Under the pieces are notes generated by a model. The model searched no databases and was not told where the DNA came from. It was given only the letters and a program-made list of their open reading frames with translations. Positions 16,052 to 52,647 of a stretch of DNA of 53,899 nt are shown here, in pieces (the stretch's first letter is position 1; the number at the start of each line of letters is the position of its first letter). Source of the DNA: a virus (taxonomy: Duplodnaviria; Caudoviricetes). The translations under genes were made by a program, and so were the position numbers. The DNA lies in the IMG/VR virus record IMGVR_UViG_3300012942_000054, positions 1-53,899 of that record. One strand, 5' to 3'.

Positions 16052-18343
16052 TTAATTTCCTGAAACTTGATTCCACACGTAATTGCCACCTCCCATGTCC
16101 TGACATTGAATCAATATTGTGCGGGTCATGCCTGTAACATTGCTACCTGCATTGTTGTAATAACCCGGAGAAACCGCTACCGTAATTGCCGTACCGGATG
16201 ACCGCGATACTATCTGCAACAGGCGCCCCGACTGGTCAGATGATGCATTAGGAATTGTAATTGTACCATCCTCTGTTTCCATAATGATATAATCGCCATC
16301 CTGAACGGTATAGTTCCCCGCAACGACTGTGTATTCGCGAAACTGGGCGCCTTTAATAAAGTTGGATTCAGCCGCAAGGGTAATCCTTCCTCCACCGCCT
16401 GTTGCCTCTATATCAATACTATTTGTAGATGTTAGTTTGAACGGCTCACCGCCCAAATAGCCTATTTTAGTATTATCGCTACCAATTGTTTTCGTGAAAA
16501 CGATATCTTCTCCACCTGCATCATTCCCGTTGGTCAAGACATCATGCAAATTGGGGTTTGTAAATGCCGGAAATGTCGCTAAACTGCCGTCACCGCGGAT
16601 GTACTGGCTTGTTGTGCCGGTTGGTACATTGTATTTTGCCGCCCATTCCGCCGTTGTGGGCAATTTATACCCGCCGGCAATTCCAACAGTAAAGGTCTTA
16701 TCGGTGCTGCTGTTTGCGGTAAATGTTTGCGACCCGGTTAGCCCTGTTCCGGTGGACATAATCAAGGCATTATTATTAATATCTGTGGTTGCTGCTACTT
16801 TTCTAAACGCGCTTCCGCCGGCGCTAAACCACAAATCAGTACTGCCGTTATAATTGTACAAATCCCATCTTCCGCTATTTGAGTTATTGTTTCTTACATA
16901 AGTTATACCGCCGCCAAAAGAGTTGTCGGGGAATCCTGTGTTTGTTGTGCCTTTACTGTAAATCCACAAACCAACTGTTCGGGGTAAAAAAGCATCATCG
17001 GTACTACCTAAAGGCAAAGAACGGAGCGAGGTTAAAGTGGCTGATGTTCCCGTGGATGATGTAACGGTTCCGGAGGTCGTGGTCGTGCCTAAATCTGTTC
17101 CGGGAGTAGTCGGCAACGTCACGCTATTACCGTCGCTAATGCTAAGCGTCTGACCTGATATTGATAAAGTTTGAGCAGCGGGAATATCCTGTGTAGATAG
17201 CACTCCATCTGCATCCGCCGTAACCATTCTTACACCTGTTCCTGACAAATCCGATATTGCCGCATTTCCTCGAACATCTAAATTATATAGCGGCATATTA
17301 TTTTGCCCTGATGGCAAATTGATACCAACACTGGAATTGGTAAATTTTATTGTCGGATTTAAGTAGGTATTATTTCCAAAACCCAAATATCCAAAACTCA
17401 ATTGTTGTGATTGACCAAAAAAACCAAAACTACCCATGATACTTCCAGAGGTGTTGGTAACATTAAAAAATCTATTCCAGCCTGTTGAAATTGTAGTGGG
17501 CACAATGGAAATTCCATTCCCAGTTAGTGTTAGAACACTATTATTCGTACCACCTTTGGTAATGGTGTTTCCCTGAGTAGTTACAGCTTGTAAGTTAGGG
17601 ATAGATGATAAATAGTTTTGCGATTGAACCCAATCTTCTGTTGCAACCTTTTTGTATGTGAACTGAACAGCACCAGCCGGAGTGTCAACGAAAGGTTGAC
17701 TATTATAAAAAGTGACGGTATTATTACCGGTAGAGATTCTGTTTATTACTACTCCTCGCAACTGCACATAATTTGCCGTCGGTTGCGCCCATACGGTTAG
17801 GGTGTTTCCTGAAGTTGTGTACCAAAATTGGTATGAGGTATTAGAAACATCCCTCAGCTGGTATGCCGTTACATTTAGCGCACCTGATACAAGAATAACT
17901 CCAAATTGCAAATGCGAAACTGTTGGGTCATTGCTTCCATGTCCTCTTACAACATTAATGTCAAACTTTTCAGACCATGAATTGCCATTGATAGTAACGT
18001 CGAGAACCTTGCAAAAGTTTCCTGCATTTGTGTTATTCGATGAGTTAGTTATAAAAACGACTGGTGTTAGTGCTGATACGGCATCATTTACCGCTTTAGT
18101 GGTAGGATAAGTAACATTATCAGGGCTGTTCAGGTTTGTCACCTTATTGCTCGTTCTTTCCAAATCAGTAGGCACGCCGCTTACGTCCGTCCACTTGAGC
18201 GAATCTAACACATTCACACCCGAACGGGTAATGATAGTTTGCCCCCCTACACCGGGCTCAATCTGTTTAGGTGAAATCTTCATGCTTTGCCCGAATGAGA
18301 GCAAAGGCAGGAAGCTAATAGCCGCTAATAGTATCCGTTTCAT
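16052..18343 (-). CDS. tail-fibre-like protein with Sec signal peptide
   Basis: MKRILLAAISFLPLLSFG|Q; G/S/T/N-rich with fibre-type motifs RMVTADADGVL, TTSQYIRGDGS, QTLSISGQTLSIS. Confidence 0.65.
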   Translation of the reverse strand: MKRILLAAISFLPLLSFGQSMKISPKQIEPGVGGQTIITRSGVNVLDSLKWTDVSGVPTDLERTSNKVTNLNSPDNVTYPTTKAVNDAVSALTPVVFITNSSNNTNAGNFCKVLDVTINGNSWSEKFDINVVRGHGSNDPTVSHLQFGVILVSGALNVTAYQLRDVSNTSYQFWYTTSGNTLTVWAQPTANYVQLRGVVINRISTGNNTVTFYNSQPFVDTPAGAVQFTYKKVATEDWVQSQNYLSSIPNLQAVTTQGNTITKGGTNNSVLTLTGNGISIVPTTISTGWNRFFNVTNTSGSIMGSFGFFGQSQQLSFGYLGFGNNTYLNPTIKFTNSSVGINLPSGQNNMPLYNLDVRGNAAISDLSGTGVRMVTADADGVLSTQDIPAAQTLSISGQTLSISDGNSVTLPTTPGTDLGTTTTSGTVTSSTGTSATLTSLRSLPLGSTDDAFLPRTVGLWIYSKGTTNTGFPDNSFGGGITYVRNNNSNSGRWDLYNYNGSTDLWFSAGGSAFRKVAATTDINNNALIMSTGTGLTGSQTFTANSSTDKTFTVGIAGGYKLPTTAEWAAKYNVPTGTTSQYIRGDGSLATFPAFTNPNLHDVLTNGNDAGGEDIVFTKTIGSDNTKIGYLGGEPFKLTSTNSIDIEATGGGGRITLAAESNFIKGAQFREYTVVAGNYTVQDGDYIIMETEDGTITIPNASSDQSGRLLQIVSRSSGTAITVAVSPGYYNNAGSNVTGMTRTILIQCQDMGGGNYVWNQVSGN

Positions 18344-18641
18344 AAGTCGTCCATGTATTTATTGTACTGATTTGTTTGCCGCATTTCACACACTGCCGGC
18401 TCACAATTTGTGTCTGTGTATGCGCCACGGTGTCAGTTTCATCAGCCGTGGTCGTAAACCATTCGTGATGACAGCTATCCACGCCTGCATAACCATTCTC
18501 TGTTCTTGTTGAGAATGTCGTATAAGTGCTGTCCGTATTCGCCGGCGGTGCTGCAAAGGCACTTTTTTCAGGCTGCACCAAAAAGAACATGCAGGTAATA
18601 ATAACTGCCAGTAGCGAGAATATAGTTGCTATTCGTTTCAT
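18315..18641 (-). CDS. exported small Cys/His protein
   Basis: Hydrophobic N-terminus, AFA motif, CHHEW...CVKCG. Confidence 0.6.
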   Translation of the reverse strand: MKRIATIFSLLAVIITCMFFLVQPEKSAFAAPPANTDSTYTTFSTRTENGYAGVDSCHHEWFTTTADETDTVAHTQTQIVSRQCVKCGKQISTINTWTTYETDTISGY

Positions 18642-18653
18642 GAGATTGGGGGG

Positions 18654-19718
18654 TTAATAGACGTATTTAATATCAACTTCATCCCCTGCACTTACATTAT
18701 AAGGCAGGTTTGTGTTTGTTATTTTCAATGTTGTTCCACTCCATGTTACCGCACCCCATTTTGCCAAAACCCCATTGATGAATACTTCAGGAATACGGCC
18801 TGCTTTTACCGCATGTGGCAAGATTATCGAAACCACACCCGATACAATATCTCCTGATACAACCATATGGGTTAATGTGTCCTCCGTACCGTAAATATCC
18901 GTTGGGCTGACATCTGCATTGATAGTCACGTTTCCGCTACCGACCAATCTATTGGTAAGCGTCCCGGTCATGGTTACATTAGTTCCTGCTACCAAATTGC
19001 CTCTGGTAACTCCGATAGCCCCGGTGGTTGAATTATATGTAATTGGTGATGTTCCCGAAATGTCAGATAAACTTGCTTTACCGTTAAACGAAGTCCAATC
19101 GGTTGAACTCAAATAGCCATCCGTGCTTCCGTCTGCCTTATCAATCGTAAGAGCTGGAGTTGTAGTTGGAGTAGCCACATGAAGCGGTGCTGTTGCGGTT
19201 ACATTAGTCACTGTACCACCGCCGATTGTTGGTAATGTTTTCCATGTGCCATCGCCGGCCAAATACTTGCCGACTCCGGCAGTTCCTGACCCCAAACGGT
19301 CGGTTGCAAATGTTCCGGATGTGATTATACTTGCCGGTAAATTAGGTATATCCGCTGCTACCAATGCACGAAAATCAGGCACTCCATTTGAGCCGGTTGG
19401 AGAGGCAAACACCTGATTAGCCGTTTGGCTTTTGAATGTCAGCGACAATGTACCGGAAGTCGTTACCGGACTGCCACCAACATTAAACACACTTGTCGGA
19501 GCTGATAATGCTACTGAGGTCACTGTGCCTTGCGGAATGTTCGGTGGGTTGGAAATATCAGCCCATTTCAGCGAATCCCATTGGGCAACGCCGCTACGAA
19601 CGATAATTAGCTTGCCGTTTGGATTTACGGCATCAGGTTTCAATTGTTTGGGCGCAACCTGCGCAAACGCCCCGATTCCTGCTAAGGAAAGAATTGATAA
19701 AAGGATTAACTTTTTCAT
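18654..19718 (-). CDS. tail-fibre-like protein with Sec signal peptide
   Basis: MKKLILLSILSLAGIGAFA|Q; GTVTSV, VPDFRALVAADIP, YLAGDGTW motifs. Confidence 0.65.
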   Translation of the reverse strand: MKKLILLSILSLAGIGAFAQVAPKQLKPDAVNPNGKLIIVRSGVAQWDSLKWADISNPPNIPQGTVTSVALSAPTSVFNVGGSPVTTSGTLSLTFKSQTANQVFASPTGSNGVPDFRALVAADIPNLPASIITSGTFATDRLGSGTAGVGKYLAGDGTWKTLPTIGGGTVTNVTATAPLHVATPTTTPALTIDKADGSTDGYLSSTDWTSFNGKASLSDISGTSPITYNSTTGAIGVTRGNLVAGTNVTMTGTLTNRLVGSGNVTINADVSPTDIYGTEDTLTHMVVSGDIVSGVVSIILPHAVKAGRIPEVFINGVLAKWGAVTWSGTTLKITNTNLPYNVSAGDEVDIKYVY

Positions 19719-19733
19719 TGTTTTTTGTTTTGT

Positions 19734-20216
19734 TTAGTTGTGATAAGAATATTTGACTTTTATTTTATCCGTGCTGTCTATCCGATAAAATGACTTTATT
19801 ATTGTTAATTTATTATTTATTATTTGTATCCAATCACTCGGCAGCTCCACACCGTTTACACTAACCACCGTTGTATTGGCAGATGGCTCAAATGACAGCG
19901 AGTAACTCCCCGTGCCTACCGGTTCGCCGTCAAACTCCTCTACACGCTGATAATAATTATTCGATTCCTGCCCAACCTCAACCCATTGCCCGCTTTTTTT
20001 ATATTCCAGATTATGGGAATTGTCGTTTATCCGTATGTCCCCATATCCGTAAAAATCAGAGTTCCCCGAAGTGTGAGGCAGCCCGATTGCAGAATCAGCC
20101 ATAAAACCGCCCTTGTTTTGTACAATCATGTGTGGGTTGCCTTGCACCTGTACCTGTTGCGCATATAAACCACTCGTCAGGGCTATCAATATCAATGTCA
20201 AAATTCCTTTTCTCAT
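19734..20216 (-). CDS. exported beta-rich protein
   Basis: MRKGILTLILIALTSGLYA|Q; C-terminal VSVNGV...DKIKVKY resembles the C-terminus of 18654-19718 (VFINGV...DEVDIKY). Confidence 0.65.
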   Translation of the reverse strand: MRKGILTLILIALTSGLYAQQVQVQGNPHMIVQNKGGFMADSAIGLPHTSGNSDFYGYGDIRINDNSHNLEYKKSGQWVEVGQESNNYYQRVEEFDGEPVGTGSYSLSFEPSANTTVVSVNGVELPSDWIQIINNKLTIIKSFYRIDSTDKIKVKYSYHN

Positions 20217-20656
20217 TGCCCCGATTTATTGATTAATACTGCTATTTTATTACCCGGATAAACGCCGCCAAAATCCGTAAAGTCTAATGTTCCGGTCGTT
20301 GAATTGAGCGTTACTTTATCTTCATCAACCATATTATCAATAACCACTAATAACAACTCCCCACCCTTTAAATTCACATCCACAATCGTGTTACTTTGTG
20401 ACTGCGGCTCATACACAAACTTGTACGTCTGTTTTATCGCCTTTATCTGTTCGGTAAGCGTATTTGAAAGAGCTTGCAGTAACTGTGTTACTTGTTGTTT
20501 AGTGTATGTCTTGTTTTGTAAGGCGAACAGATTGGCATCGACACAATAATTATCTACATTTGGCTTAAACGCCGCAAGAAATATTCCGATCAGGTCTGTT
20601 GCCTCCGAAAAATCACTTAGCTTCTCTCCAGTTAGATTATTTGGGTCTAATACCAT
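20213..20656 (-). CDS. putative structural/adaptor protein
   Basis: In the fibre operon, no signal peptide. Confidence 0.6.
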   Translation of the reverse strand: MVLDPNNLTGEKLSDFSEATDLIGIFLAAFKPNVDNYCVDANLFALQNKTYTKQQVTQLLQALSNTLTEQIKAIKQTYKFVYEPQSQSNTIVDVNLKGGELLLVVIDNMVDEDKVTLNSTTGTLDFTDFGGVYPGNKIAVLINKSGQ

Positions 20657-20660
20657 TCCT

Positions 20661-20825
20661 TTAGCTTCTTTCGGGTATAAATACTATTTGTCCATCACTC
20701 TCCGACAACAATAAAATAGGGTTGCTATCTGTGCTTTTCTCGGCAACGAGAACGGGTAAGAGCACACCTTCTCCATCATCAACAATATCTATATCACCGC
20801 AAGCACCAACCGTTAGCCATTTCAT
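20661..20825 (-). CDS. small protein (54 aa) MKWLTVGACGDIDIV...
   Basis: Translated by hand; first ORF after leader element C. Confidence 0.6.
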   Translation of the reverse strand: MKWLTVGACGDIDIVDDGEGVLLPVLVAEKSTDSNPILLLSESDGQIVFIPERS

Positions 20826-20837
20826 AGTTATTAAAAT

Positions 20838-20900
20838 AAAAAATGCGCCAACCCCACCAACGTAGAATTAGCGCACCAACGCTCTAAATAAACAATATGT
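20838..20900 (-). promoter_or_regulatory. conserved leader/attenuator element C
   Basis: ACATAT...AGAGCGTTGG-TGCGCTAATTCTAC-GTTG-GTGGGGTTGGCGCA-TTTTTT. Confidence 0.7.
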
Positions 20901-20947: not shown

Positions 20948-20990
20948 CAAAGGTAATGATTTTATTTACAAATGCGACTGTGTCTTATTA
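20948..20990 (-). promoter_or_regulatory. TAnnTTTG promoter plus degenerate palindromic operator
   Basis: TACCTTTG (20948-55) lies 14 nt from AAATGCGAC-TGT-GTCTTATTA (20970-90). Confidence 0.65.
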
Positions 20991-36206: not shown

Positions 36207-37661
36207 CTATGTGTTTGCGGGCAACGCTGTTTCATTATTGCCCTGATTAGTACCATCGTTTACATACATGCTGTCTAATTGTGCTTGTGCCTGGCCGTTG
36301 CTATAATTCACGGTCAGCGTTTCTTTTATTTCGGAGTACCATACATCGCCGCCCTTCTTAGCATCAAAACCTAACTTCACACGCCATTCATTTTGCGTAA
36401 CTACGTCTTTCAAGAAGGCTATCTGCATTGCCTGATTTACCCGAAGCATAGCTTCCGCTTCTTCTTTGTTAGCGCCTTGTAACGCCGGTAACCTCCAATA
36501 CTCCCGACCCATTTCGAGGTTGTATTTTGCCGTGTCGAATATCTTATTCCATTGGGCGTAAATATTCTTAGCTTCCGGCATAATGGCATCCTGATAAAGA
36601 TTTCGGCTGGCCGTGGCCATGTTGGAAAAGGTTGTACCGCCATTCATTTTGGCGAATAGTTCAGGCGGAAACATATAGGTATCACAAAGCCGGTTTCCGT
36701 CATCTTCTATTTCCTCAAACAGCATCAAATCCTTTGTGGGCAATACCATTGGTTGCCATTTCAGGTTTGCCGAAGTGATAATAACATGGCTCTGTCCCTG
36801 CCGCAATCCGTACAGTTTCTTAAAATCCCGGTGCAATTCGCTCTTTTGGTCGGAAGTCAAAGGGATGGCACTAAAACTGTCCTGTGTTTGGTTGGTCAAC
36901 ATACCTAAAGCGCCACGGGAATTAATCAGCATATTGCGACTCTCATAAGCCCCGATAATGTTATTTATCGGCATCTTTAGGGTCTTAACCCGGCTATCCG
37001 GCAAGAGTACCGTGCTGAACGAAGGCATTATGTCCCGGATAATCGCAACGCTATCTAATGGCAGTGATACTCTTTCATTGCCATAAGTCAGGGTAATTCT
37101 TTCAAACTCCGTATTCCGCCCTTTATAGAAAATGCCATCCTTTTCCTTAATATCCAGCAAATGAGGTGGGATAACCCACATCTTTTCAGCATCATAATTC
37201 GGAAAACCAACCGGCTTAATAAACAACACGACGGCAAACCCGAATAGCTGCGAGTAGATATAAATTTGGTTTTCAAATTCCTCTCTCGTCTGCAAAGGGT
37301 TGGGGTTGTTCATCAACGCCCGTATTTTCTTTGCCACTTCGCTTTGTGATTCCCGGTCTTTGTTTACGCCTTCCGTATTGATGATATATGTTTCGCCATT
37401 AGTAAATGCCTGCGCCTTCCGGTTAATCAAAGCCGAAAGTGGCGGACAAGCGAAATAGGCACGGGCGTATGAGGCCAAGCTATCTTCGCAAAAGTGGTAA
37501 GTACCGGCATTGCCGCCGAAAGGATAAAACCAATCTTCGCCGCCACGATATTTATCATGTTCCAAAGTCAAAGAACTTCCGAAAAGGCTCTTTACAGCTA
37601 AGCCAACATTGGCTTGCTTCATGTGAATTGCTGAAAGCTGTAACCGTTCCTTTATGTCCAT
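36207..37661 (-). CDS. portal protein (HK97 family)
   Basis: NPNPLQT, LFG.A, TFSN motifs; start moved to ATG 37661 because the ORF-track extension lies in the leader hairpin. Confidence 0.9.
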   Translation of the reverse strand: MDIKERLQLSAIHMKQANVGLAVKSLFGSSLTLEHDKYRGGEDWFYPFGGNAGTYHFCEDSLASYARAYFACPPLSALINRKAQAFTNGETYIINTEGVNKDRESQSEVAKKIRALMNNPNPLQTREEFENQIYIYSQLFGFAVVLFIKPVGFPNYDAEKMWVIPPHLLDIKEKDGIFYKGRNTEFERITLTYGNERVSLPLDSVAIIRDIMPSFSTVLLPDSRVKTLKMPINNIIGAYESRNMLINSRGALGMLTNQTQDSFSAIPLTSDQKSELHRDFKKLYGLRQGQSHVIITSANLKWQPMVLPTKDLMLFEEIEDDGNRLCDTYMFPPELFAKMNGGTTFSNMATASRNLYQDAIMPEAKNIYAQWNKIFDTAKYNLEMGREYWRLPALQGANKEEAEAMLRVNQAMQIAFLKDVVTQNEWRVKLGFDAKKGGDVWYSEIKETLTVNYSNGQAQAQLDSMYVNDGTNQGNNETALPANT

Positions 37662-37673
37662 TTCCGAAAAACG

Positions 37674-37732
37674 AAAAAGCGCCAATCCCCTTTCGGGAAT
37701 TGGCGCATCCAACGCTCTATAAATTATATGTT
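37674..37732 (-). promoter_or_regulatory. conserved leader/attenuator element A
   Basis: ACATATAATTTATAGAGCGTTGGAT-GCGCCAATTCCC-GAAA-GGGGATTGGCGC-TTTTT. Confidence 0.75.
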
Positions 37733-37742
37733 TACAATGTTC

Positions 37743-38012
37743 TTATCTATACTTTGCCATCATTCGCTTTTCAGCTATAAAACGGCGTTTGACAAATTCT
37801 TTTTCTTTAAACTTCTTATCTTCAAAGTCTTGCTTTACATTCAGGTTTTTCAATTGCTCATCAAAAGAAACGGACGGCTCACATACTATCTGCTTTGTCT
37901 TGCAGGTGCTTTTTGGGCAGACTATTTCAATATTGGCCTCCATTATTGGTTTGGCACTCTGAAATAAGAAATGCCCGCAATTGTTGCACCAATATTTATG
38001 TTTAAACTCCAT
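37743..38012 (-). CDS. Mu Com-like zinc-finger regulator
   Basis: YWCNNCGHFLF...IEIVCPKSTC, compare Com pattern RCxxCxKLL...EIKCPRC; basic C-terminus. Confidence 0.65.
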   Translation of the reverse strand: MEFKHKYWCNNCGHFLFQSAKPIMEANIEIVCPKSTCKTKQIVCEPSVSFDEQLKNLNVKQDFEDKKFKEKEFVKRRFIAEKRMMAKYR

Positions 38013-38021
38013 TTCTTTGCA

Positions 38022-38063
38022 CAAAGATAGTGTTTTATTTCCAAATGCAACTCTGTCGCATTT
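38022..38063 (-). promoter_or_regulatory. TAnnTTTG promoter plus palindromic operator
   Basis: TATCTTTG (38022-29) lies 13 nt from AAATGCAAC-TCT-GTCGCATTT (38043-63). Confidence 0.75.
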
Positions 38064-38075
38064 ATTTTTTGTGAA

Positions 38076-39800
38076 TTACCGAACATTAAACTGCCGGCCA
38101 TTGCCCAAAGCCATATATCTGATGCAATCCATGATATGGTCATGCTCTTTGATTGGCTCTAAAGTGTATTTTCCCGTCCACTTATCAATCTTATATTTGT
38201 ATTTGACTGTTTCCTTCCACCCGTTCGTGCTTCCTTCTGTCATTAAAACCTCCATTGACCTAACCGCTTTGATGCCAGACCGGACAGACCCTTGACCTTT
38301 AATCGCACCGACAACCACAATGCCATTATCAAGCATTTTCTTCAACTTCTCCATTTGGGCTGATGACTTATAGCGATAACCCATGGCTGCCACCTTTTCA
38401 TTGATATACTCTTGTTCCAATGGATGCCCATAACGCAAGTCTGATATATCTTTCGGATTGGCGCTATCTGCAATAAGGATATGCCCTTTTTCCTCGTCAT
38501 AACCGTTAAAGAACAAGTGGATTATAATTTCTTCGTTACTTAGTCCTGATTCGTAAACAAGTTCTTTGACATATATTGTCCGTCCTTCAATTGCACCTCT
38601 GATTATTGCCGTTGGATGGTCGCTAAAGCCAAAATCCAAAGAAAAAATCTCGGCATGTTTCGGGAATTGTTTGTCGTGGATTCGTTTAAAGTGGTTGTAA
38701 ACCTGTCCCTGTATTTCTCCTCGCTCTCCTAAACCATAAACCAAATATCCCTGAGGGTCATTAATGCGCATCCATTCCAATTCGTCTAATTGGCGTTCAG
38801 AAAGGTGCGGGTTATTCTTGTAGGTAGTTCGTAGAAATGCCACGTTATCACGGGTTAGGATATTGTCGTAAACCCAACTATCAGGATATGAGGGGTTGTA
38901 GTCAATGATAACCTTTCCTGATGTACGGAATAAAAGCTGCTTAACCGCTTCCCATTCCAATTCCGGGGCTTCATTCAAATATAATAGATGTTGCTTTCGA
39001 CCTCTTAGTTTCTCCTCATCATCGCCAGAGAAAAACCAAAGGTCATTCCCCTCGTGTTTATATTTCTGCTCCGTTTGATTATGGCTGGAAACTTTGTAAA
39101 GTCCGCCCTCTTGTCCAATTTCAATGAAGTCAGGAATAACAGTTCCTTTCAGCGTTGGCATTGATTGACGAACAATAGAGTATTTAACGCCCGAAGCCTG
39201 CACCATATTCATCCAAATAAATTGAAGTGTGGCGTAAGTTTTACCGGAATTATGGACTAAAATCGGCTTGCCGCAATCGAGAAAATAATTATGATTGCTC
39301 GCTATTGAAAGGTCATAGACAACGGGGTGGAATGATTTTGGTGTATATGCGGCAAAATCAATATCTGAAATTTCCAGACCTAACGGGTTTTTGATTTGAC
39401 AATCACTATAAATATAATGTGATATTGGCATCCAAACACCATCCACATAAAACTTGTGGTCGGCGCTGCATACTATTTCCTTTCCGTTCTTTAGTTTTAT
39501 TTTTACTGTCGGCTTGTGATTATTGAATGACAAAACCTCTTTTACTGGCTTCCATTCAAGTTCTTTAGTCTGCTCGTTGAGTGTTCGGACTAAATCTCCC
39601 TGCTGTATTTCTGAAATTGGCTTACTACCGTATTTTGTAACTACAAGTTGATTAGGCGCAAAACACCTTGTTCCTCCTTGTAAAACGAAAATATCATAGT
39701 TCTCAATCTCGTTTAACAGCATCGCAAAGTTGGGGTTCAGAACTTCTCCATTCCGTTTCCAAACCTTTTTCGTGTACTTCTCTGTTAAATCTACTGCCAT
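38076..39800 (-). CDS. terL: terminase large subunit (PBSX-like) with intein
   Basis: LQGGTR|SGKT Walker A split by an intein, LYLNEA Walker B, DYNP, LDFGFSDHP, DHIMDCIRY; start at ATG 39800. Confidence 0.93.
   Translation of the reverse strand: MAVDLTEKYTKKVWKRNGEVLNPNFAMLLNEIENYDIFVLQGGTRCFAPNQLVVTKYGSKPISEIQQGDLVRTLNEQTKELEWKPVKEVLSFNNHKPTVKIKLKNGKEIVCSADHKFYVDGVWMPISHYIYSDCQIKNPLGLEISDIDFAAYTPKSFHPVVYDLSIASNHNYFLDCGKPILVHNSGKTYATLQFIWMNMVQASGVKYSIVRQSMPTLKGTVIPDFIEIGQEGGLYKVSSHNQTEQKYKHEGNDLWFFSGDDEEKLRGRKQHLLYLNEAPELEWEAVKQLLFRTSGKVIIDYNPSYPDSWVYDNILTRDNVAFLRTTYKNNPHLSERQLDELEWMRINDPQGYLVYGLGERGEIQGQVYNHFKRIHDKQFPKHAEIFSLDFGFSDHPTAIIRGAIEGRTIYVKELVYESGLSNEEIIIHLFFNGYDEEKGHILIADSANPKDISDLRYGHPLEQEYINEKVAAMGYRYKSSAQMEKLKKMLDNGIVVVGAIKGQGSVRSGIKAVRSMEVLMTEGSTNGWKETVKYKYKIDKWTGKYTLEPIKEHDHIMDCIRYMALGNGRQFNVR
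39249..39665 (-). mobile_element. mini-intein (139 aa)
   Basis: CFAPNQLV...CSADHKF...VYDLSI...HNYF...ILVHN|S. Confidence 0.92.
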
Positions 39801-39811
39801 ACTCCAAATGC

Positions 39812-39872
39812 AAAAAGCGCCAACCCTACCGAAGTAGAATTGGCGCATTCAACGCTCTTAAAATTATATGTT
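39812..39872 (-). promoter_or_regulatory. conserved leader/attenuator element B
   Basis: ACATATAATTTTAAGAGCGTTGAAT-GCGCCAATTCTAC-TTCG-GTAGGGTTGGCGC-TTTTT. Confidence 0.75.
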
Positions 39873-39945: not shown

Positions 39946-40248
39946 TTATTCTTCTTTAATTGGAATAAATAGTCTTTCTATCTCTTTTGATATTGTTTCC
40001 ATTGACATTTTTACATTTTTAATAATCCAATCTTCACATTCTGATTCCTGTTTGGTAGCATATATGTTTACAGCAAATTTATTAATACCAGCATCACTAT
40101 TTTTATAAAACTTTGACACATGCACAAACCCATAAAATCCAGACAGAGATTTGTCTGATTCTATGTGCCACATCGCATCAATTCCGGTTATTAGCTTCGC
40201 ATGGAATCCTCCATCGCTAAGCTCCTTAAATTCTATATCCCTAACCAT
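39946..40248 (-). CDS. hypothetical protein
   Basis: ORF. Confidence 0.65.
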   Translation of the reverse strand: MVRDIEFKELSDGGFHAKLITGIDAMWHIESDKSLSGFYGFVHVSKFYKNSDAGINKFAVNIYATKQESECEDWIIKNVKMSMETISKEIERLFIPIKEE

Positions 40249-40268
40249 GAATGCAATTTAATAATTAA

Positions 40269-40847
40269 TTATCGGATACCCAATTCAAATACCTTGTACA
40301 AATGCTGATTATCTTCTTTTGCTATTGAATTGCTTGTGTTTTCAATCCGGTAACAATGGTATAAATAAATGCCTTTCGCAAGTCCTATTTTACCATGCCC
40401 CTGAATCCGTATTGCTTTATTGAAAAATGTATCTGCCTTTATCGTTCCTTCCTTAAAACCGCCTACTTTCTGCCATGTGCTTTTACGAAACATCATAAAG
40501 CATCCGGCAACGCCTGTTGTTTCTTCCACAACGCCATAAAATTCATCTTGCAGCTTCCGGGCAATGTCGGTATGATGACGCATATCGTGATTGTTGCTAA
40601 ACTCTCCATTGTAGCATTGATGCAACCCGCCAACCCGATTAACAACCGCCCCAATCAGCCCAAATTCATCCAGCTTTGTTTCGGCAATGTCATGTATCTG
40701 TTTGCCAAAATCCGGCAACAGGAAATTTGTGTCCGCATCGGTAATCACAATAACGGAATCATCGGGCAAGTGTTTAATATGCTCGTTATACCCTTTCCCT
40801 ATATTGACATCAAGCCGGAATGTGTGTATGAAAAACAGGTTTTCCAT
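40269..40847 (-). CDS. GT-A fold (GT2-like) glycosyltransferase
   Basis: NIGKGYN, ITDADT (DxD), AGCFMMFRKSTWQKVGGF, YLYH. Confidence 0.75.
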   Translation of the reverse strand: MENLFFIHTFRLDVNIGKGYNEHIKHLPDDSVIVITDADTNFLLPDFGKQIHDIAETKLDEFGLIGAVVNRVGGLHQCYNGEFSNNHDMRHHTDIARKLQDEFYGVVEETTGVAGCFMMFRKSTWQKVGGFKEGTIKADTFFNKAIRIQGHGKIGLAKGIYLYHCYRIENTSNSIAKEDNQHLYKVFELGIR

Positions 40848-41487
40848 CAATTACTTTGTGTTTATGAATGGTTACGAATTGATAAACCAATTTGCTCGGA
40901 ATCGGGAATATCCCCATATCCATTTCCCATTGAACTTTTGTAACGCTCAATTGGTCTCGGTGCGTAAATTCCAGCAATTCTGACCACCATTTACGGCCAA
41001 ATTCGACTACTTCTGGTGTGTATTTACGAATCATTAGGCTTGTGTCAAACATCCCGAAATACTTAGGAATACCCAGCTTCCGGTAAGCCGACATTTGCTG
41101 CTCAATCATCCCGCTTTCAGCCTTTTTAAGCCGGTTGCAGGCGTGGGCTTCATCATATACACATGACCGGATTGGATGTTTCATTATTGAAAACTCGTCC
41201 TTGCTTGCAAGGAAAGTAACATCCATTTCAATGCTCAATTTTCCATCGACATAGATAGTATGACACTTAAAATACTCAATAGCACCGATTATCTTTGCCC
41301 AACGTTGCAAATACAAGTTATTCAGCCCCTCCGGTGGGTTTAATGCAGAAATATGTAGTAATTCCCAACCATTAGGGTCAATATCTAAGTTATCGACAAT
41401 AGCAATGTACCGCCAATCAGGATTTTTAACCTGAATAGGCTTTAAATTGTCATAATTGCCCGTTATTATCGTAAATACTACTGCCAT
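40810..41487 (-). CDS. DUF616/MUCI70-like glycosyltransferase
   Basis: VFTIITGNYD, IYVDG, KHPIRSCVYDEA, RDQLS. Confidence 0.75.
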   Translation of the reverse strand: MAVVFTIITGNYDNLKPIQVKNPDWRYIAIVDNLDIDPNGWELLHISALNPPEGLNNLYLQRWAKIIGAIEYFKCHTIYVDGKLSIEMDVTFLASKDEFSIMKHPIRSCVYDEAHACNRLKKAESGMIEQQMSAYRKLGIPKYFGMFDTSLMIRKYTPEVVEFGRKWWSELLEFTHRDQLSVTKVQWEMDMGIFPIPSKLVYQFVTIHKHKVIDGKPVFHTHIPA

Positions 41488-41505
41488 GCTATCCCACTTC
41501 TATTT

Positions 41506-41832
41506 TTAATCAGAATCTTTATTGACAATATCCACTTTGCCATCCTGAATGTAGGCATCCAAATCGGCCTGTTTAAACATCAGGCGTCCATTTACTTTAT
41601 AGTGAGGCACTATGCTTTTTGAAGCCATATTATATACAGTTTGTACCGCTCTGTTTAGATACTTTGCCGCCTGTTTGATGGTCATATAAGCCGGCTTATC
41701 TTCGGGTTGTGGTTGTGACAATTTTGATAATACACTTTTTAATGTAGCCTCTAAGTAATCAATTTTACCTTTCATTTCAAGGAACATTACAGGCAAATTA
41801 TCATAGCTCGGCAATTCAGATAAACTATTCAT
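41506..41832 (-). CDS. excisionase-like HTH_17 protein
   Basis: MTIKQAAKYLNRAVQTVY...VPHYKVNGRLMF. Confidence 0.8.
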   Translation of the reverse strand: MNSLSELPSYDNLPVMFLEMKGKIDYLEATLKSVLSKLSQPQPEDKPAYMTIKQAAKYLNRAVQTVYNMASKSIVPHYKVNGRLMFKQADLDAYIQDGKVDIVNKDSD

Positions 41833-42119
41833 AAACTCTCAATTTCAGGTTTTACATACTTTGTTTTATATTTTTCGGGGTTGTAACTCCCGTTTTTAAT
41901 TGCTCTTTTCTTTGCCTCCCGAATCACTCTATAAGGATAAAGCCATTCCTCTGATTTTATTACCAATGTGCCAATAGCCACAATTAGCAGAAAAAGCACC
42001 ACAGTTATCCAAAACGGGCTTATAACCCAACCCCATGACATTTGTATTACCCCGAACAATTTAAGGGCAACAAGGACTATCGTAACGATAAATGGCGATA
42101 AGAAAAGCAACTTTTTCAT
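41829..42119 (-). CDS. two-TM membrane protein
   Basis: LKLFGVIQMSWGWVISPFWI. Confidence 0.7.
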   Translation of the reverse strand: MKKLLFLSPFIVTIVLVALKLFGVIQMSWGWVISPFWITVVLFLLIVAIGTLVIKSEEWLYPYRVIREAKKRAIKNGSYNPEKYKTKYVKPEIESL

Positions 42120-42131
42120 GGCTATTTATGT

Positions 42132-42653
42132 TTAAAATAATTCGGCTATCTTGCTAATGAATAATTCGTGTTTCTGCCTCGTATCCAATAATGTGCCTTC
42201 ACTTGTTTTGTACATTTTTGATCGACTGTCATAAGACATATACCTATGTATTTTATTATGAAGCGTTATCGGTAAAATAATAACGTCTTTATAGTGTTCT
42301 TCATTGTAACTCCAGTGATGGCGTTCGCAATTTTCGGGGCAAGGAATATGTTGAGAATGTAATTTCGCATTCCTCTTTTCCGGGTATCTTTCAATATAAT
42401 TACCAATAGACTTTTTCTTTACATTTTTTGGGGTTGGAATCCCTTTATATAACCTATGATACTTTTCTCTACCTCTTATTTTTTCGTTCTTTACAAATTC
42501 AGGGTCATTTTCTCTCAAATACTCAACCCTTGCATTGCTATCTGACTTCGTGCATTCTTTACATTTATTCAAATGCCCGTCCATCATCCGCTTATGTTTA
42601 TAAAAGTCGTCAAGCGGTTTAGATACCCCACACTTAAAGCAAATCTTATCCAT
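42132..42653 (-). CDS. zinc-finger/HNH-like protein
   Basis: CFKC...FYKH...CKEC and HHWSY...H..IH. Confidence 0.6.
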   Translation of the reverse strand: MDKICFKCGVSKPLDDFYKHKRMMDGHLNKCKECTKSDSNARVEYLRENDPEFVKNEKIRGREKYHRLYKGIPTPKNVKKKSIGNYIERYPEKRNAKLHSQHIPCPENCERHHWSYNEEHYKDVIILPITLHNKIHRYMSYDSRSKMYKTSEGTLLDTRQKHELFISKIAELF

Positions 42654-42663
42654 TTAATAATTT

Positions 42664-43083
42664 TTAAAAAGGGAGCGAATCATCATCAGAATCAACCACA
42701 TAAGCGGCGGTTGCTTGCGCCGGGGTTTGGACTGCTGGTTTTGGCGGTGCGGCCTGTTGTCGCTGGGGCTGTTGTGTCTGCTGCTGACCAACCAGTCCAA
42801 TACGCCATGCCTGTAAATTGGTAAAGAACCGAACAACGCCGTCCTTATCGTTTCTGTTCGTCCGTACATTGAATGAAACCTCAACCTCCTGCCCAATCTG
42901 AAAATTATTGAGCGCCGTGCATTGATTATTCACAAATTGAAAAGCGGCAGCATTGCTGAATGTTTGCCCCGAATTGGATACCGTTTCAACCTCAATAGCA
43001 AATTCACGCTTGCTGAACTTTTCGCTGATAAAGACTTGTTCCCCGATATAGGTAATCCGGCCTGTTAATTTTAAATCTGACAT
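42664..43083 (-). CDS. ssDNA-binding protein (DUF3127 family)
   Basis: KFSKREF...GQEVEVSFN...FTNLQAWRI, Gln-rich linker, DDDSLPF tail. Confidence 0.85.
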   Translation of the reverse strand: MSDLKLTGRITYIGEQVFISEKFSKREFAIEVETVSNSGQTFSNAAAFQFVNNQCTALNNFQIGQEVEVSFNVRTNRNDKDGVVRFFTNLQAWRIGLVGQQQTQQPQRQQAAPPKPAVQTPAQATAAYVVDSDDDSLPF

Positions 43084-43092
43084 CGTATAAGA

Positions 43093-43386
43093 TTATTTTT
43101 TAACAATTTGATATTTAGACAATTCGGATTCACATTCCTGAATCTTCCTGTCATAAAAATCCAAAAAGAATCTACGCAAATCCTCTAATTCATCTATGGA
43201 GGCTTCATTTATATAATTAGAGGCACTTACCTCAAACTGCCCTGTGTTTTCCAGGGTTCTTTCTTGTGGCTGTACAAATACAGAATCTTTAATATTATTT
43301 CTATGTCTCTCAAATATTCTTAAAGATGAAATAATACGATTAATCTTACACGATTCTTCGCTTAGTTGTTCAATACATTGTTCCAT
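43093..43386 (-). CDS. hypothetical protein
   Basis: ORF. Confidence 0.6.
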   Translation of the reverse strand: MEQCIEQLSEESCKINRIISSLRIFERHRNNIKDSVFVQPQERTLENTGQFEVSASNYINEASIDELEDLRRFFLDFYDRKIQECESELSKYQIVKK

Positions 43387-43470
43387 GATATAAAAATAAA
43401 TAATTACAATTTTGCCGTTTAGCGGTTTTTGCTGAAAAAATTTAGTCCCCTCTTTTCTGAAAACACATTT

Positions 43471-43845
43471 TTACCCATTTGCAATCGCCTCTTTAAGCAC
43501 AAACTCAATCCTCGGATTAGCCTTGTCGATAAACTTTTGCGCCACAATCTTCACACATTTGTTATCATTCTTAATCGCTTTCACAGATTGCAGCATATCC
43601 AAAAGGCATTTAAGCGAATTATCTAAATCACTCCTGTTTGACGGATAATAAGCATCCACATACAACTCAAACAATCCATCAATATTTCTGTTCCGATACT
43701 CATTGCATTGCAGATAAAAACTCTTTTCATATTCTTTCAGCGCCTTGCCCTTTGCCAATGAGGCATGACCATTGAAAGAAATAATTTTGTAACAATTACT
43801 CTTTGACGGTGGTGTACCTAATATGACCTGTTTTTGGGTTTCCAA
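43471..43845 (-). CDS. rusA: second RusA-family resolvase
   Basis: PSKSN...DLDNSLKCLLDMLQ...IKNDN...PRIEF. Confidence 0.85.
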   Translation of the reverse strand: METQKQVILGTPPSKSNCYKIISFNGHASLAKGKALKEYEKSFYLQCNEYRNRNIDGLFELYVDAYYPSNRSDLDNSLKCLLDMLQSVKAIKNDNKCVKIVAQKFIDKANPRIEFVLKEAIANG

Positions 43846-43846
43846 T

Positions 43847-44680
43847 TCAATGTTTTTTTATTACCGTTAATGACAATATTTTTATTCCAAAAACAGGATG
43901 GACATCTTTATCTTGATTATGCGCTTTAGACCATTGGTGTAATATTTTAAAATTTATATTATTAAGTCTGCAATAGTCTCTAAAATAATTCATGGTCTTT
44001 ATTGTTCCATCTTTAAAAAGAATATTGTAAAAATTCTTTTCTCCGCTTGCCTTTGAAATTGATTTCTTCGCCTGCTCAGACATTGAAAATGTCCTACCCC
44101 TGAGCTTATCTTTTACATATTCTGGAATCCTTTTACCTAAATTCGCCTGTCTTAGTTTTTCTCTTGTCTCAGCAGATGGACTATATCCGAATCGAAAATT
44201 CTTTCCCTTTTTAACTTCACTAAGATGCTTCCTTGCTGCCGCACTCCATTTTACACCAGTACAATCCCCCGCTATCGGAGCTGAATTATATCCATTGTGA
44301 TAGGAATCTAAAAAGTCAATATAATGCTGCTCTGCGGCAATTTTTGATGACTTATACTCAAATTTAATAGATTCTATTATTTCAAAATCAAACGAATCTT
44401 CTCCGTATTTATTCCATGCCCTTTGTAATTTTATGGAATGATGCTTATTCGCCCTTAAGCCTTGTAAGTGGTTACTCCATCTGTCTAATATGTTTGTTGC
44501 ACTTCCAACATAACATTTTTCATTAGCAATATTTCTTATCATGTAGATATGACAAAATTTTCCGCCGCCAATGGTCTTTATCGGCTGTTTAAACCGATTG
44601 CCAATCTTTTGAATACCGTGCAAGTTCTCACTAACACACCACCCGGACGTTGAGGCTTGGTCTATCGCTAAAATTTTCAT
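43847..44680 (-). CDS. GIY-YIG homing endonuclease with NUMOD3-like repeats and a RuvC-like N-terminal stub
   Basis: HIY...CYVGSA...RW..H...EQHYID...GYN; N-terminus MKILAIDQASTSGW. Confidence 0.85.
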   Translation of the reverse strand: MKILAIDQASTSGWCVSENLHGIQKIGNRFKQPIKTIGGGKFCHIYMIRNIANEKCYVGSATNILDRWSNHLQGLRANKHHSIKLQRAWNKYGEDSFDFEIIESIKFEYKSSKIAAEQHYIDFLDSYHNGYNSAPIAGDCTGVKWSAAARKHLSEVKKGKNFRFGYSPSAETREKLRQANLGKRIPEYVKDKLRGRTFSMSEQAKKSISKASGEKNFYNILFKDGTIKTMNYFRDYCRLNNINFKILHQWSKAHNQDKDVHPVFGIKILSLTVIKKH

Positions 44681-44689
44681 TGTCGTAAT

Positions 44690-44833
44690 TTATTTCATTC
44701 CACGGGACACAAATTCAAATATTCTATCAGCCAATAACAACGCATCAGCGTAATTCTCCTTCTCAACCTCGAATGCCAATTGCAAGCACCGAAACTTTAA
44801 ATCAACAACCTCCATGCTGAACATAACCGACAT
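44690..44833 (-). CDS. small hypothetical protein (up to 47 aa)
   Basis: Translated by hand; first ORF after the 44857 promoter. Confidence 0.5.
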   Translation of the reverse strand: MSVMFSMEVVDLKFRCLQLAFEVEKENYADALLLADRIFEFVSRGMK

Positions 44834-44856
44834 AACCGATGAACTTTATTTCGCAT

Positions 44857-44898
44857 CAAAGGTAAGTCATTTTTTCCAAATGCAACACAGTCGCATTT
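44857..44898 (-). promoter_or_regulatory. TAnnTTTG promoter plus palindromic operator
   Basis: TACCTTTG (44857-64) lies 13 nt from AAATGCAAC-ACA-GTCGCATTT (44878-98). Confidence 0.75.
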
Positions 44899-45400
44899 AT
44901 TTTTCCTGGCCTAACTCTCCAAACTTGTCCGCAACCCAATCAACAATCGTTTTCCGCTTCCTTGCCAAAAACGGATTTAGCATATAAACCTTCCTTACTT
45001 CCCCTAAAATCAACCCGTCAAGCACATAGATAACACCAGCCCTTTTTAACCGCTCAATCAATGCAAAAAACATCCTCTCGCTCCTTATCGACAAAGCCAC
45101 CTGTAACGTCCTCGCCGAATGAGGCTGATTGTTCCTCGAATACAACAAATTCAAAGCCGTCTTCGTCATCTGTGCCATCTTACAAACCTTAGCCACGTCC
45201 GCATCATTCAATATCCCACAGATATAGTCAAATGCAACAGAATCAATATTCGCATACTCACTTGATGAAATCGTTACCAATCCCGTTTCCTCATTACGCA
45301 TCACAATAACACCCTCCGATGCCAACGTTTCCCCAGTTTCCAAATTCACATACTGACCTAAATCAATCGGAATAGCACGCCTTATCTTCCTATTCGCCAT
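44897..45400 (-). CDS. RepL-like winged-helix protein
   Basis: YVNLETGE N-terminus, L...GVI, YMLNP motif. Confidence 0.5.
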   Translation of the reverse strand: MANRKIRRAIPIDLGQYVNLETGETLASEGVIVMRNEETGLVTISSSEYANIDSVAFDYICGILNDADVAKVCKMAQMTKTALNLLYSRNNQPHSARTLQVALSIRSERMFFALIERLKRAGVIYVLDGLILGEVRKVYMLNPFLARKRKTIVDWVADKFGELGQEK

Positions 45401-45798: not shown

Positions 45799-46398
45799 TT
45801 AAATATCTTCGTGTGTAATATCTTCTGTGTCCTGTTCTATTGCCTTGCCAGATTGCAGCCACTTGGGAGGCTCTTTTAGTTGTAAAGTATGCTCTATTTG
45901 CTTTACGTCCTGATAGCGGCTATTATTAACTAAATAGAACTTGGCAGCGTTATCGGTCAAGATGCCGTTATGCTGTCGTTTTAACGTGTGATAGGTTACG
46001 AAGTCCTTGACAAGGCGCGCGACTAAAGAATAGTCTTGGAAACCATCTTTACCTAAAAGGTATTCGTCGAATGTTACAAAGGTTATCCCGGCGAAAAGAC
46101 AAAATGATTCTATTGTTATAGGCTCTGGCTTATTAACGATTAGTGGCGTTCCTTCTCTCGTGGGTATGTTACATTGAATGTCTTCGGTTCGCGGTGTTAT
46201 CCATTCGCTCCACTCATTAAATGCATCCAACATTTGTTGCGCCGATTTGATCGCTCTTGGTTTTCCGATTTTGTTAGTTGCGATCCGTTGCATTGCTTCG
46301 CTGATTTTTTTTTTGAGTTCTTCGGGCGAAATGTCGGGCGGTTGATGCTGCTGTTTTTGTAGTTGTTTTTTTTTATCGTTGTTCATATTGTAATACAT
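45799..46398 (-). CDS. terS: terminase small subunit (gp3-packaging-like)
   Basis: GKPRAIKS..QM...F.EW, PITIESFCLFAGI, AKFYLVN; first gene of the late strand. Confidence 0.65.
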   Translation of the reverse strand: MYYNMNNDKKKQLQKQQHQPPDISPEELKKKISEAMQRIATNKIGKPRAIKSAQQMLDAFNEWSEWITPRTEDIQCNIPTREGTPLIVNKPEPITIESFCLFAGITFVTFDEYLLGKDGFQDYSLVARLVKDFVTYHTLKRQHNGILTDNAAKFYLVNNSRYQDVKQIEHTLQLKEPPKWLQSGKAIEQDTEDITHEDI

Positions 46399-51504: not shown

Positions 51505-52602
51505 ATGGCAATTCATATCAGAGCCCGACAAATTTCCGGGGGGCGGCAATCTCTTTACATTGACAAAGGAACGGCAGCCGAACGATTTAGAAGCCTGAAT
51601 TTATACTTAAATCCGGGCAACGACAAAGCCACAAAACAGGCGAACAAAGAAGCCTTAGCCCTCGCCAAACAAAAAGCGGCCAAAATAGAGCGGGAAATGT
51701 CCTTGCCGGAACTTTACACCCCTGATGAATTAAACCGGCTGAAATGGCAGGAAAACGGGCAAATCGGGGTATTGTCTTTCATTCAGGCAAACGCCCGGAA
51801 AAAGAAAGAAAGCAATTATCAAGTTTGGATGGCAACCGCAAAGCAATTAAAGCGGTGCTGGGGGGGTACGGAGAAAAAATTCCGGGACTTAACCCTATTG
51901 GACGTGGACGAGTTTCAGGATTATTTACTAAATACTGCCATTTGCGCACGGACAAAGAAACCGATTAGCCACAATTCGGCAGCCTGTTACTTCGCTACTT
52001 TCAAAAGCATTTTAACTGATGCTTTCAGGGGTAATTACCTTTATGAAGATTTAGCCAGTCAGGCGGGCAAGATTGCCCCGAAAGAAGTTAACCGGGAGTA
52101 TCTTACCATTGATGAATTAAGACGGCTTAAAGTAACCTTTTGCAGCTATTCGGGGTTGAAACGCATGGCTTTGTTTTCAGCCTATACCGGTTTACGCTGG
52201 TCTGATGTGTCGAAACTGAAAGTTAGCGAACTGAAACAAACGCCGGACGGCTGGGTCATTGATTTTGAACAAAAGAAAACCGGACGAGAAGAGATATTAC
52301 CCATATCTGATGATGCTTATAACTTGTTGCCCATACCCCCCCGGGGAGAAAAAATCTTTACCCATGTGGATTACAAAGACATGCAGAAACCGTTAAAATC
52401 ATGGATGGAGGGGGCGGGAATAAAAAAGCATATCACATTCCATTCGTTCCGGCACTCGTTCGCCATGAATATGTTAGCCAATAAGGTTGACATTGTTACT
52501 ATCAGTTCAATGTTAGGCCATGCTTCAATTAGCACTACACAAGTTTATGCACGAGCATTAGCGGCAGAGAAAAGGGCAGCCACTCTGCAAATAAAAATTT
52601 AG
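51505..52602 (+). CDS. int: tyrosine recombinase/integrase
   Basis: TGLRWSD, KKT, HSFRHSF, LGH, TQVY catalytic residues; arm-binding-like N-terminus. Confidence 0.93.
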   Translation: MAIHIRARQISGGRQSLYIDKGTAAERFRSLNLYLNPGNDKATKQANKEALALAKQKAAKIEREMSLPELYTPDELNRLKWQENGQIGVLSFIQANARKKKESNYQVWMATAKQLKRCWGGTEKKFRDLTLLDVDEFQDYLLNTAICARTKKPISHNSAACYFATFKSILTDAFRGNYLYEDLASQAGKIAPKEVNREYLTIDELRRLKVTFCSYSGLKRMALFSAYTGLRWSDVSKLKVSELKQTPDGWVIDFEQKKTGREEILPISDDAYNLLPIPPRGEKIFTHVDYKDMQKPLKSWMEGAGIKKHITFHSFRHSFAMNMLANKVDIVTISSMLGHASISTTQVYARALAAEKRAATLQIKI

Positions 52603-52617
52603 TTCTAAAACAATCCG

Positions 52618-52647
52618 TACATTTGCAAATGCGACTATGTCGCATTA
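52618..52647 (+). promoter_or_regulatory. TAnnTTTG promoter with the palindromic operator over the start site
   Basis: TACATTTG (52618-25) then AAATGCGAC-TAT-GTCGCATTA (52627-47). Confidence 0.7.

Follow-up and report, generated by a model that had tools for sequence, protein, structure and literature searches.

Why does one phage carry the same short hairpin in front of three separate late gene blocks, and why does a small zinc-ribbon gene end just beside one of these hairpins? The question is raised by IMGVR_UViG_3300012942_000054, the complete 53,899-bp IMG/VR virus record (CheckV 100%) of a soil Bacteroidota phage, which we analysed over its whole length and call the window. The element in question is a leader of about 60 nucleotides (nt) that occurs as three paralogous copies, all on the minus strand. 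Copy A precedes the portal gene, copy B the gene of the large terminase (TerL) and copy C a late operon, and the open reading frame (ORF) upstream of copy A encodes a zinc ribbon resembling Com of phage Mu. Our favoured explanation, to which we give a probability of roughly 45%, is that this Com-like protein would act as a local antiterminator at the leaders.

Three leaders with one conserved RNA hairpin

Each copy consists of a 5' box, ACATAT...AGAGCGTTG(G/A), then a hairpin and then a T5-T6 tract. The stem of 12-13 bp follows GCGC(C/T)AATTC...(A/G)TTGGCGC, and the loops are GAAA in copy A, TTCG in copy B and GTTG in copy C, where the hairpin can be extended to 20877-20842 and is followed by an A and then T6 at 20843-20838. 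A G+C-rich stem-loop with a U tract directly behind it in the sense strand is the anatomy of an intrinsic terminator. The first-pass annotation of this DNA had placed the three copies where we find them, and the pattern AGAGCGTTGN{1,4}GCGCYAATTC indeed matches three times in the window and not once in any of 100 shuffles. The folding energies of the 86-nt leaders lie between -26.7 and -30.2 kcal/mol (z between -4.6 and -5.0), and 0 of 200 shuffles are as stable. The same annotation set the hairpin 16-18 nt ahead of the start codons; this distance holds for copy A (17 nt to the portal ATG at 37661) and copy B (16 nt to the TerL ATG at 39800), while copy C lies 19 nt from the ATG of a 54-amino-acid (aa) ORF at 20825, or 16 nt with the extended pairing. 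A covariance model run on the window with its filters off returned the three copies only (E <= 0.0064; next E 1.4), all three being among its training rows, and Rfam gave no match at gathering score across the whole window. An exact-pattern scan of viral contigs produced two further matches, which lie within coding sequence without a hairpin and were rejected as chance.

The hairpin is a selected, strand-specific RNA structure. Its stem irregularities, read from the sequence, are G-U pairs only in the minus-strand sense, which had been taken from the start as a sign of RNA structure, and the covariation of the stem bears this out. Across 35 aligned leaders the ten lower stem pairs have 90.9% paired cells, and in eight of the ten both partners have changed in a compensatory way. 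Their covariation, scored at 0.508, exceeds that of every one of 500 shuffles (0.240 +/- 0.020), and partners slid out of register score at most 0.168. At the outer end of the stem two pairs, mostly G-U and A-U, involve the first bases of the U tract and thereby fix the strand. Throughout the family the T tract lies directly behind the stem; such a tract is required by an intrinsic terminator and superfluous for a purely translational hairpin, and therefore counts for antitermination. The unpaired box is retained while loops and upper stems vary. It had also been proposed that AGAGCG can alternatively pair with the 3' arm and the U tract. This pairing is possible, as the minimum free energy (MFE) structure of copy A contains it.

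The three copies share a history. Over 36 nt copy A has 92% identity to copy B, and the homology of A and C extends about 40 nt upstream of the box, with an identical 10-mer, AAAAGCGAAT, 40 nt before ACATAT in both. In A this 10-mer encodes the C-terminus of the zinc-finger ORF, and the roughly 40 nt that separate copy C from its promoter-like module retain a remnant of the 3' end of the Com-like ORF. Because of this shared remnant and the same upstream module, copy C is apparently a duplicate of the whole unit of promoter, Com-like ORF and leader, minus the ORF. In contigs of close relatives (80% likeness) the sequence breaks or joins exactly at element boundaries (37732/40284, 20662/37674 and 39837), and one relative's TerL leader has an A-type upper stem and loop. 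This suggests exchange among the copies, though repeats or other organisms can also give such joints.

A Com-like protein that travels with the element

The zinc-ribbon ORF ends 10 nt before copy A starts. Its zinc ligands, C9-x2-C12-x19-C32-x4-C37 (CxxC-x19-CxxxxC), are invariant in 10 of 10 aligned homologues. The early description of this protein as Com-like agrees with the profile comparison: hhalign of the ten-sequence profile with Mu Com gave 94.4% probability (E 8.9e-8) over 31 columns that cover the whole ribbon and both knuckles, whereas the control comparison with P2 Ogr gave 0.2% (E 0.32). We use "Com-like" in the sense of remote homology because of this difference. The Pfam family Zn_ribbon_Com (PF10122) has a gathering threshold of 22.9 bits. 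Among ten distant positional homologues five pass it (26.0-38.3 bits), three fall below and two give no match; two of the ten close homologues match weakly (best E 0.033), and none of ten family members matches Ogr_Delta (PF04606). The window protein itself matches no Pfam or PHROG family. Together these comparisons support it as a remote homologue of Com that is not a member by the Pfam threshold. The protein is also rare: among 5.8 billion proteins there is a single 74%-identical match, and HMMER, run in full over 1.84 billion representatives, gave nine matches at E <= 1e-3. Searches of the PDB with the zinc-ribbon profile and with Mu Com found no solved Com structure.

Relatives of the locus were gathered with a 23-sequence portal alignment, which yielded 80 viral and 15 genomic loci, cited here by L numbers; TerL as the query gave one locus only, and a blastn search of 5 kb against 50,697 phage records gave no match. 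Portal relatives are found in Bacteroidota metagenome-assembled genomes, including Chitinophagaceae and Sphingobacterium, several prophages in Bacteroidota genomes are among them, and close relatives from Logan, ENA and JGI include a 66% portal on a 4.7-Mb contig. The two closest loci by portal identity, L007 (77%) and L008 (71%), have the order TerL, palindrome and promoter, Com-like ORF, hairpin with T tract and portal ATG, and L008 has a stem of wholly different sequence. L007 has a second copy ahead of TerL, and its two copies have one box between them, which is unlike the window box. Small zinc-ribbon ORFs just 5' of the portal gene are also found in distant loci (about 40-46% portal identity). 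Within L007 (363-2600) TerL begins at ATG 384, directly after its own leader hairpin, and is then broken up by ORF insertions and shifts of frame, for which an intein, an inserted homing endonuclease or faulty assembly are possible causes.

For a count of the linkage between gene and element we used a Com-like hidden Markov model and a covariance model built from the 35 aligned leaders, on loci with at least 450 nt upstream of the portal. Both the Com-like ORF and the element, the latter -10 to +120 nt from the end of the ORF, were found in 45 of the 86 loci; 36 had neither and five had one alone (the element in two, the ORF in three). The co-occurrence that had been put forward as a check is therefore present. 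Sixteen of the 45 linked elements are outside the training rows, and 11 of these are not near-identical to any training row. An independent criterion asks for a hairpin no more than 30 nt from the portal ATG, with a free energy (dG) of -12 kcal/mol or lower and a T-rich tail; it is positive in 32 of 37 loci with a Com-like gene (Com+) versus 3 of 48 without (Com-). The element follows the Com-like gene and not the portal gene, because in ten loci a small ORF separates element and portal. In one subgroup (L026, L028, L034, L037, L068, L077, L082 and L094), about 190-220 nt before the portal gene, the hairpin linked to Com is followed by a small ORF of about 60-70 aa, whose ATG comes directly after the T tract.

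The leaders of the relatives also resemble known Com targets in sequence. Nowacka et al. (2019, PMC6483171) report that the Com zinc finger recognises 5'-CC(N)2-3GAG-3' and selects GAG(N)2CC, mainly in the bipartite form NGAGNNCC(N)2-3GAGNNCCNN, and that the natural Mu Com site adjoins and partly overlaps a translation-inhibition hairpin. In our relatives the 5' flank is A-rich and then reads CC(N)2-3GAG, with GAG as the first paired triplet of the stem (for example AGCGCCCCAAGAGGGCC, AAGAACTCCAAAGAGGGTC and CAGAGTCCCAAGAGGGCC). Of 33 non-identical Com+ leaders 20 have the exact motif at the 5' base of the stem, versus 2 of 42 Com- leaders, against a background of 5.6% of random 80-nt windows, and the leader of L052 fits the full bipartite consensus. 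Among 130 terminator-like hairpins in five complete relatives, six have the motif at the base and four of these are portal leaders; for the hairpins that are not leaders the count is 2 of 125. The second knuckle of the protein varies within the family, and a rule that ties its type to the RNA motif was rejected, as the tabulation (motif present with 18 of 28 CxxC proteins versus 4 of 11 CxC proteins, L007, L008 and L034 being mis-parsed by the regular expression) gave no clean pattern. In the window, GAGCGTT-GG-ATGCGCC aligns to the same columns as GCGCCCC-AA-GAGGGCC of the relatives. The layout of two half-sites is kept and its letters differ, and the window box resembles the published motif in this bipartite layout only. 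We infer that the letters may have changed in step with the altered second knuckle.

The idea of a multi-site switch needs to be narrowed. Three sites do exist in the window, whereas each of the five complete relatives (58-62 kb) has exactly one significant element, at the portal gene, and several copies are found only in the window and in L007 (at least two in 5.4 kb). The three-site layout is therefore lineage-specific. Judged by these sequences, the apparent regulon is a lineage-specific expansion of a widespread single-site module.

Proposed antitermination and the competing readings

How could such a module work? In our proposal the 89-aa ORF encodes a predicted RNA-binding zinc ribbon of the Com family, whose target would be bipartite, with one part in the unpaired box and the other in the opening bases of the hairpin's 5' arm. 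Transcripts would come from the palindrome promoters before the Com-like gene and copy C and, for copy B, from the upstream operon. Without the protein most of them would stop at the hairpin and its U tract, so that the portal unit would give the Com-like mRNA alone. As the protein accumulates it would bind the nascent leader ahead of the transcription of the 3' arm and block the lower stem beside the U tract, and RNA polymerase would then read through into TerL, the block of portal, protease and capsid genes, and the operon of late genes behind copy C. In this way the module would be a self-timed feed-forward gate on virion genes, in which binding, termination and read-through are all predicted steps. 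The proposal follows the terminator logic of BglG and SacY and the presumed ability of Com to disfavour the mom hairpin. It also takes account of the fact that a terminator before portal, protease and capsid genes needs regulated or substantial read-through, because these genes need high expression.

The proposal requires that transcription enters from upstream of the hairpins, and the distribution of promoter-like sequences is relevant here. A palindrome search of the window gave 8 matches where 0.05 were expected. The repeat is a 9-3-9 palindrome, AAATGCGACnnnGTCGCATTT, behind which the minus strand has TTTG and a TAnCTTTG box, with spacings of two classes; we read TAnnTTTG and TAnCTTTG as a putative Bacteroidota -7 box. 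Its sites precede TerS, the endonuclease/RusA block, the Com-like gene, structural genes of 606 aa and 732 aa, and copy C, and it is probably the operator of a phage regulator. The box TATCTTTG ends 9 nt ahead of the Com-like ATG, and the distance from promoter to element is about 40 nt for copy C and about 330 nt for copy A. Upstream of unit B is a long operon, and the 97-nt spacer of this unit contains no promoter motif. The first-pass annotation had raised the possibility of separate promoters behind each hairpin. By sequence there is no room for them: in all three copies the interval from stem to ATG (16-19 nt) is too short for a promoter and without a promoter motif. TAnnTTTG is absent from both the box and this interval in copies A-C, copy B having TGCATTTG, with one mismatch, 4 nt before its ATG and copies A and C nothing of the kind. 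A scan for sigma-70-type promoters stayed at background level.

Several observations weigh against the proposal. The window protein has no PF10122 match at E <= 1, and its CxxxxC second knuckle departs from the CxxC of Mu Com. The CC(N)2-3GAG motif is missing in 13 of the 33 Com+ leaders and in all three copies of the window. Both the linkage and the motif counts are inflated by shared descent, because the loci are interrelated. Leaky terminators would explain downstream expression too. Finally, nearly all Com+ loci have an ATG 5-17 nt after the end of the stem, and this spacing agrees equally well or better with a translational role.

This last point leads to an alternative that resembles the situation in Mu, and which we consider unlikely, though it deserves the most attention. 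Here the leaders would be read through, the hairpin and its A/U-rich flanks would block loading of the 30S subunit at the start codon close by, and the Com-like protein would bind and open the structure, as Com does with the translation-inhibition structure of mom. Translational activation is the sole function that the published accounts of the Com family show (PMC6483171, PMC3299994), and the position of the stem, near the ATG in the relatives as in the window copies, suits it. The AUG of copies B and C has a predicted pairing (P ~0.85) with the conserved 5' CAU of ACAUAU, which would explain the conservation of the 5' box. In copy A, however, this pairing is weak (P 0.32-0.50), and across the family the pairing of the start codon is not raised (median 0.56 in 28 Com+ loci versus 0.68 in 30 Com- loci, p 0.40). 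Start-codon sequestration is not supported as a family feature, since there is no excess over Com- loci. The start codon never lies within the stem, and a translational role leaves the conserved T tract unneeded.

A second alternative, also improbable in our view, is that the elements are passive. They might be leaky terminators or mRNA-stabilising stem-loops that were copied by recombination, with an unrelated zinc ribbon and a linkage that reflects shared ancestry. The paralogy of the copies, with the ORF remnant beside copy C, would be expected from this, as would the apparent swapping of upper stems in the contigs of relatives, the single copy in each complete relative and a window box without the Com motif. 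It is difficult to reconcile with a box that stays while loops and upper stems change, with an element that tracks the Com-like gene even across an intervening ORF, and with the rarity of the motif among the other terminator-like hairpins of the five complete relatives. A terminator with no promoter behind it would also reduce the most abundant virion proteins.

A third reading, in which the zinc ribbon is a DNA-binding activator like P2 Ogr or P4 Delta that binds AAATGCGACnnnGTCGCATTT at late promoters and the hairpins are unrelated, seems very improbable to us: the palindrome does stand before copy C, the Com-like gene and no fewer than four further units of the minus strand, none of ten ORFs tested is a helix-turn-helix candidate, the CxxC...CxxxxC spacing is presumably like that of Ogr and the Atlas cluster bears the automatic label "Com family DNA-binding transcriptional regulator", but the profile comparison and the Pfam searches both fail to connect the protein with Ogr, a related lineage has the palindrome TTTCAGAAnnTTCTGAAA in place of AAATGCGACnnnGTCGCATTT yet the same Com-type hairpin motif, and the palindrome is found too at promoters without the element.

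Genomic setting and relation to known switches

The features discussed here are collected in Table 1. The presence of an integrase indicates that the phage is temperate. On the minus strand the order is TerS (small terminase), a block of about 6 kb, TerL, portal, head protease, major capsid protein and tail genes, followed by a tape-measure-like protein, further virion proteins, five unannotated ORFs and an endolysin. The automatic ORF list put the TerL start at ATG 39848, within the hairpin of copy B; the in-frame ATG at 39800 agrees with the TerL start of L007, which itself lies behind an equivalent hairpin. The public portal call is 501 aa long and begins from a TTG at 37712, inside leader A (P0004), and the public call of the Com-like ORF has 66 aa from 37943 (P0002) and is without the first CxxC. 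Public gene calls therefore hide the module.

Table 1. Coordinates of the leaders, genes and promoter-like sequences in the window
Feature	Positions	Strand	Details and basis
Leader copy A	37674..37732	-	box ACATATAATTTATAGAGCGTTGGAT from 37732; hairpin 37706-37679 (12 bp); T5 37678-37674
Leader copy B	39812..39872	-	box from 39872; hairpin 39846-39817 (13 bp); T5 39816-39812
Leader copy C	20838..20900	-	box ACATATTGTTTATTTAGAGCGTTGGT from 20900; hairpin 20874-20845 (13 bp)
Com-like zinc-ribbon ORF, 89 aa (P0001), basic C-terminal tail	37743..38012	-	translation; hhalign to Mu Com
Portal gene, 484 aa from ATG 37661	36207..37661	-	phrog_2662 and phrog_12; PF04860 in homologues
Large terminase TerL, start re-set to ATG 39800	38076..39800	-	phrog_2; N-terminus as TerL start of L007
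Late operon behind copy C (ORFs of 54, 147, 160, 354 and 763 aa)	16052..20825	-	ORF list; no family
Promoter-like module before Com-like ORF	38022..38063	-	palindrome AAATGCGACnnnGTTGCATTT 38063-38043 and TATCTTTG 38029-38022; repeat family D2; palindrome search
Promoter-like module before copy C	20948..20990	-	degenerate palindrome 20990-20970 and TACCTTTG 20955-20948; repeats, alignment
Palindrome AAATGCGACnnnGTCGCATTT family	38063-38043, 44898-44878, 46455-46435, 22853-22833, 25339-25319, 20990-20970, 52627-52647		
TerS	45799-46398	-	
Integrase	51505-52602	+	

The operon behind copy C had been called a fibre operon, which is not established. Its five ORFs matched no PHROG or Pfam family, and the tail-fibre leads for the 763-aa ORF are all sub-threshold; the operon possibly encodes tail-fibre or receptor-binding proteins. 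The gap of about 6 kb between TerS and TerL (39946-45400) contains a GIY-YIG homing endonuclease, RusA, SSB, endonuclease VII/HNH and two glycosyltransferase-like genes, and copy B stands exactly at the boundary of this block and TerL. Between the head genes and the tail genes lies a two-way terminator-like hairpin (31587-31560), AAGAGGGGCGC...GCCCCTCTTTT. The 5' arm of this hairpin starts with AAGAGGGG, as do the Com-type stems of the relatives, with no preceding CC, and the covariance model gives no match there. At its left end (5-355) the record has a 15-bp unit repeated in tandem about 23 times, within ORFs that run off the end, and these repeats could be iterons or a coding region for pentapeptide repeats. 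A tRNA scan of the window found nothing.

Among known systems, the antiterminators BglG, SacY and LicT share the logic of our favoured model: their ribonucleic antiterminator (RAT) site overlaps the 5' arm of a terminator, and the bound protein prevents termination. The fold is unrelated here (no CAT or PRD domain by Pfam), there is no sugar or phosphotransferase system (PTS) input, and the protein is phage-encoded in the same leader as its proposed target. With lambda N at nut and Q at qut, a phage factor lets RNA polymerase pass terminators before later genes in a processive manner. Action here would be local and not processive, because each terminator has its own adjacent site; we identified no boxA or boxB, and the element's distance from the promoter is unlike the promoter-located Q site. 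P2 Ogr and P4 Delta are likewise small phage zinc fingers tied to late expression, with a dyad in their late promoters, but there is no detectable homology and Ogr binds DNA.

The closest parallel is Mu Com and mom. In Mu, and putatively here, a small Cys4 zinc ribbon is encoded directly 5' of the regulated gene and has its RNA site just 5' of, and partly overlapping, an inhibitory hairpin, and most of the relatives counted above share a site of the same type. In contrast to Mu, the proposed target here is a virion morphogenesis operon and not a DNA-modification gene, the hairpin is terminator-like with the start codon outside it, and the site lies beyond the stop codon of the regulator, whereas in Mu it is inside the regulator ORF. 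The window lineage further differs in its three sites, its CxxxxC knuckle, its changed box and its Bacteroidota host. To date Com has been reported only in the role of activating translation, either of mom or of DNA methyltransferase genes carried by Mu-like elements, and its homologues are described as preceding non-specific DNA methyltransferase genes in Mu-like prophages (PMC3299994). Our literature search, to whose scope subscription journals did not belong, found no link of the Com family to portal or head operons, to antitermination or terminators, or to Bacteroidota phages. New here would be the target class, the terminator-like operator and the host phylum of a protein-RNA switch of the Com type, as well as its three sites in this phage.

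Bacteroidota hosts have unusual promoters and do not rely on initiation led by a Shine-Dalgarno sequence, and the control of late genes in their phages is poorly understood. The same hairpin before three virion gene blocks, beside a relative of Com, suggests a timing of virus assembly that has not been described. We propose, more tentatively than for the window itself, that Com-family ribbons of many Bacteroidota phages may form an unrecognised class of antiterminator, encoded by the phage and binding RNA at specific sites, and may set the timing of virion morphogenesis. They would sit in the leader of the portal and head genes and open the terminator after their own gene, and in this phage would have a retuned RNA specificity and three sites, at TerL, the head genes and a tail-fibre-like operon. 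If this is true, a simple timing switch would stand at the entry to the portal and head operon wherever gene and element occur together in the related loci, which come from soil, rhizosphere and other Bacteroidota phages and prophages. The family would then also provide a natural series of protein-RNA specificity variants, and the module might serve synthetic control in Bacteroidota as an RNA gate that is both compact and portable.

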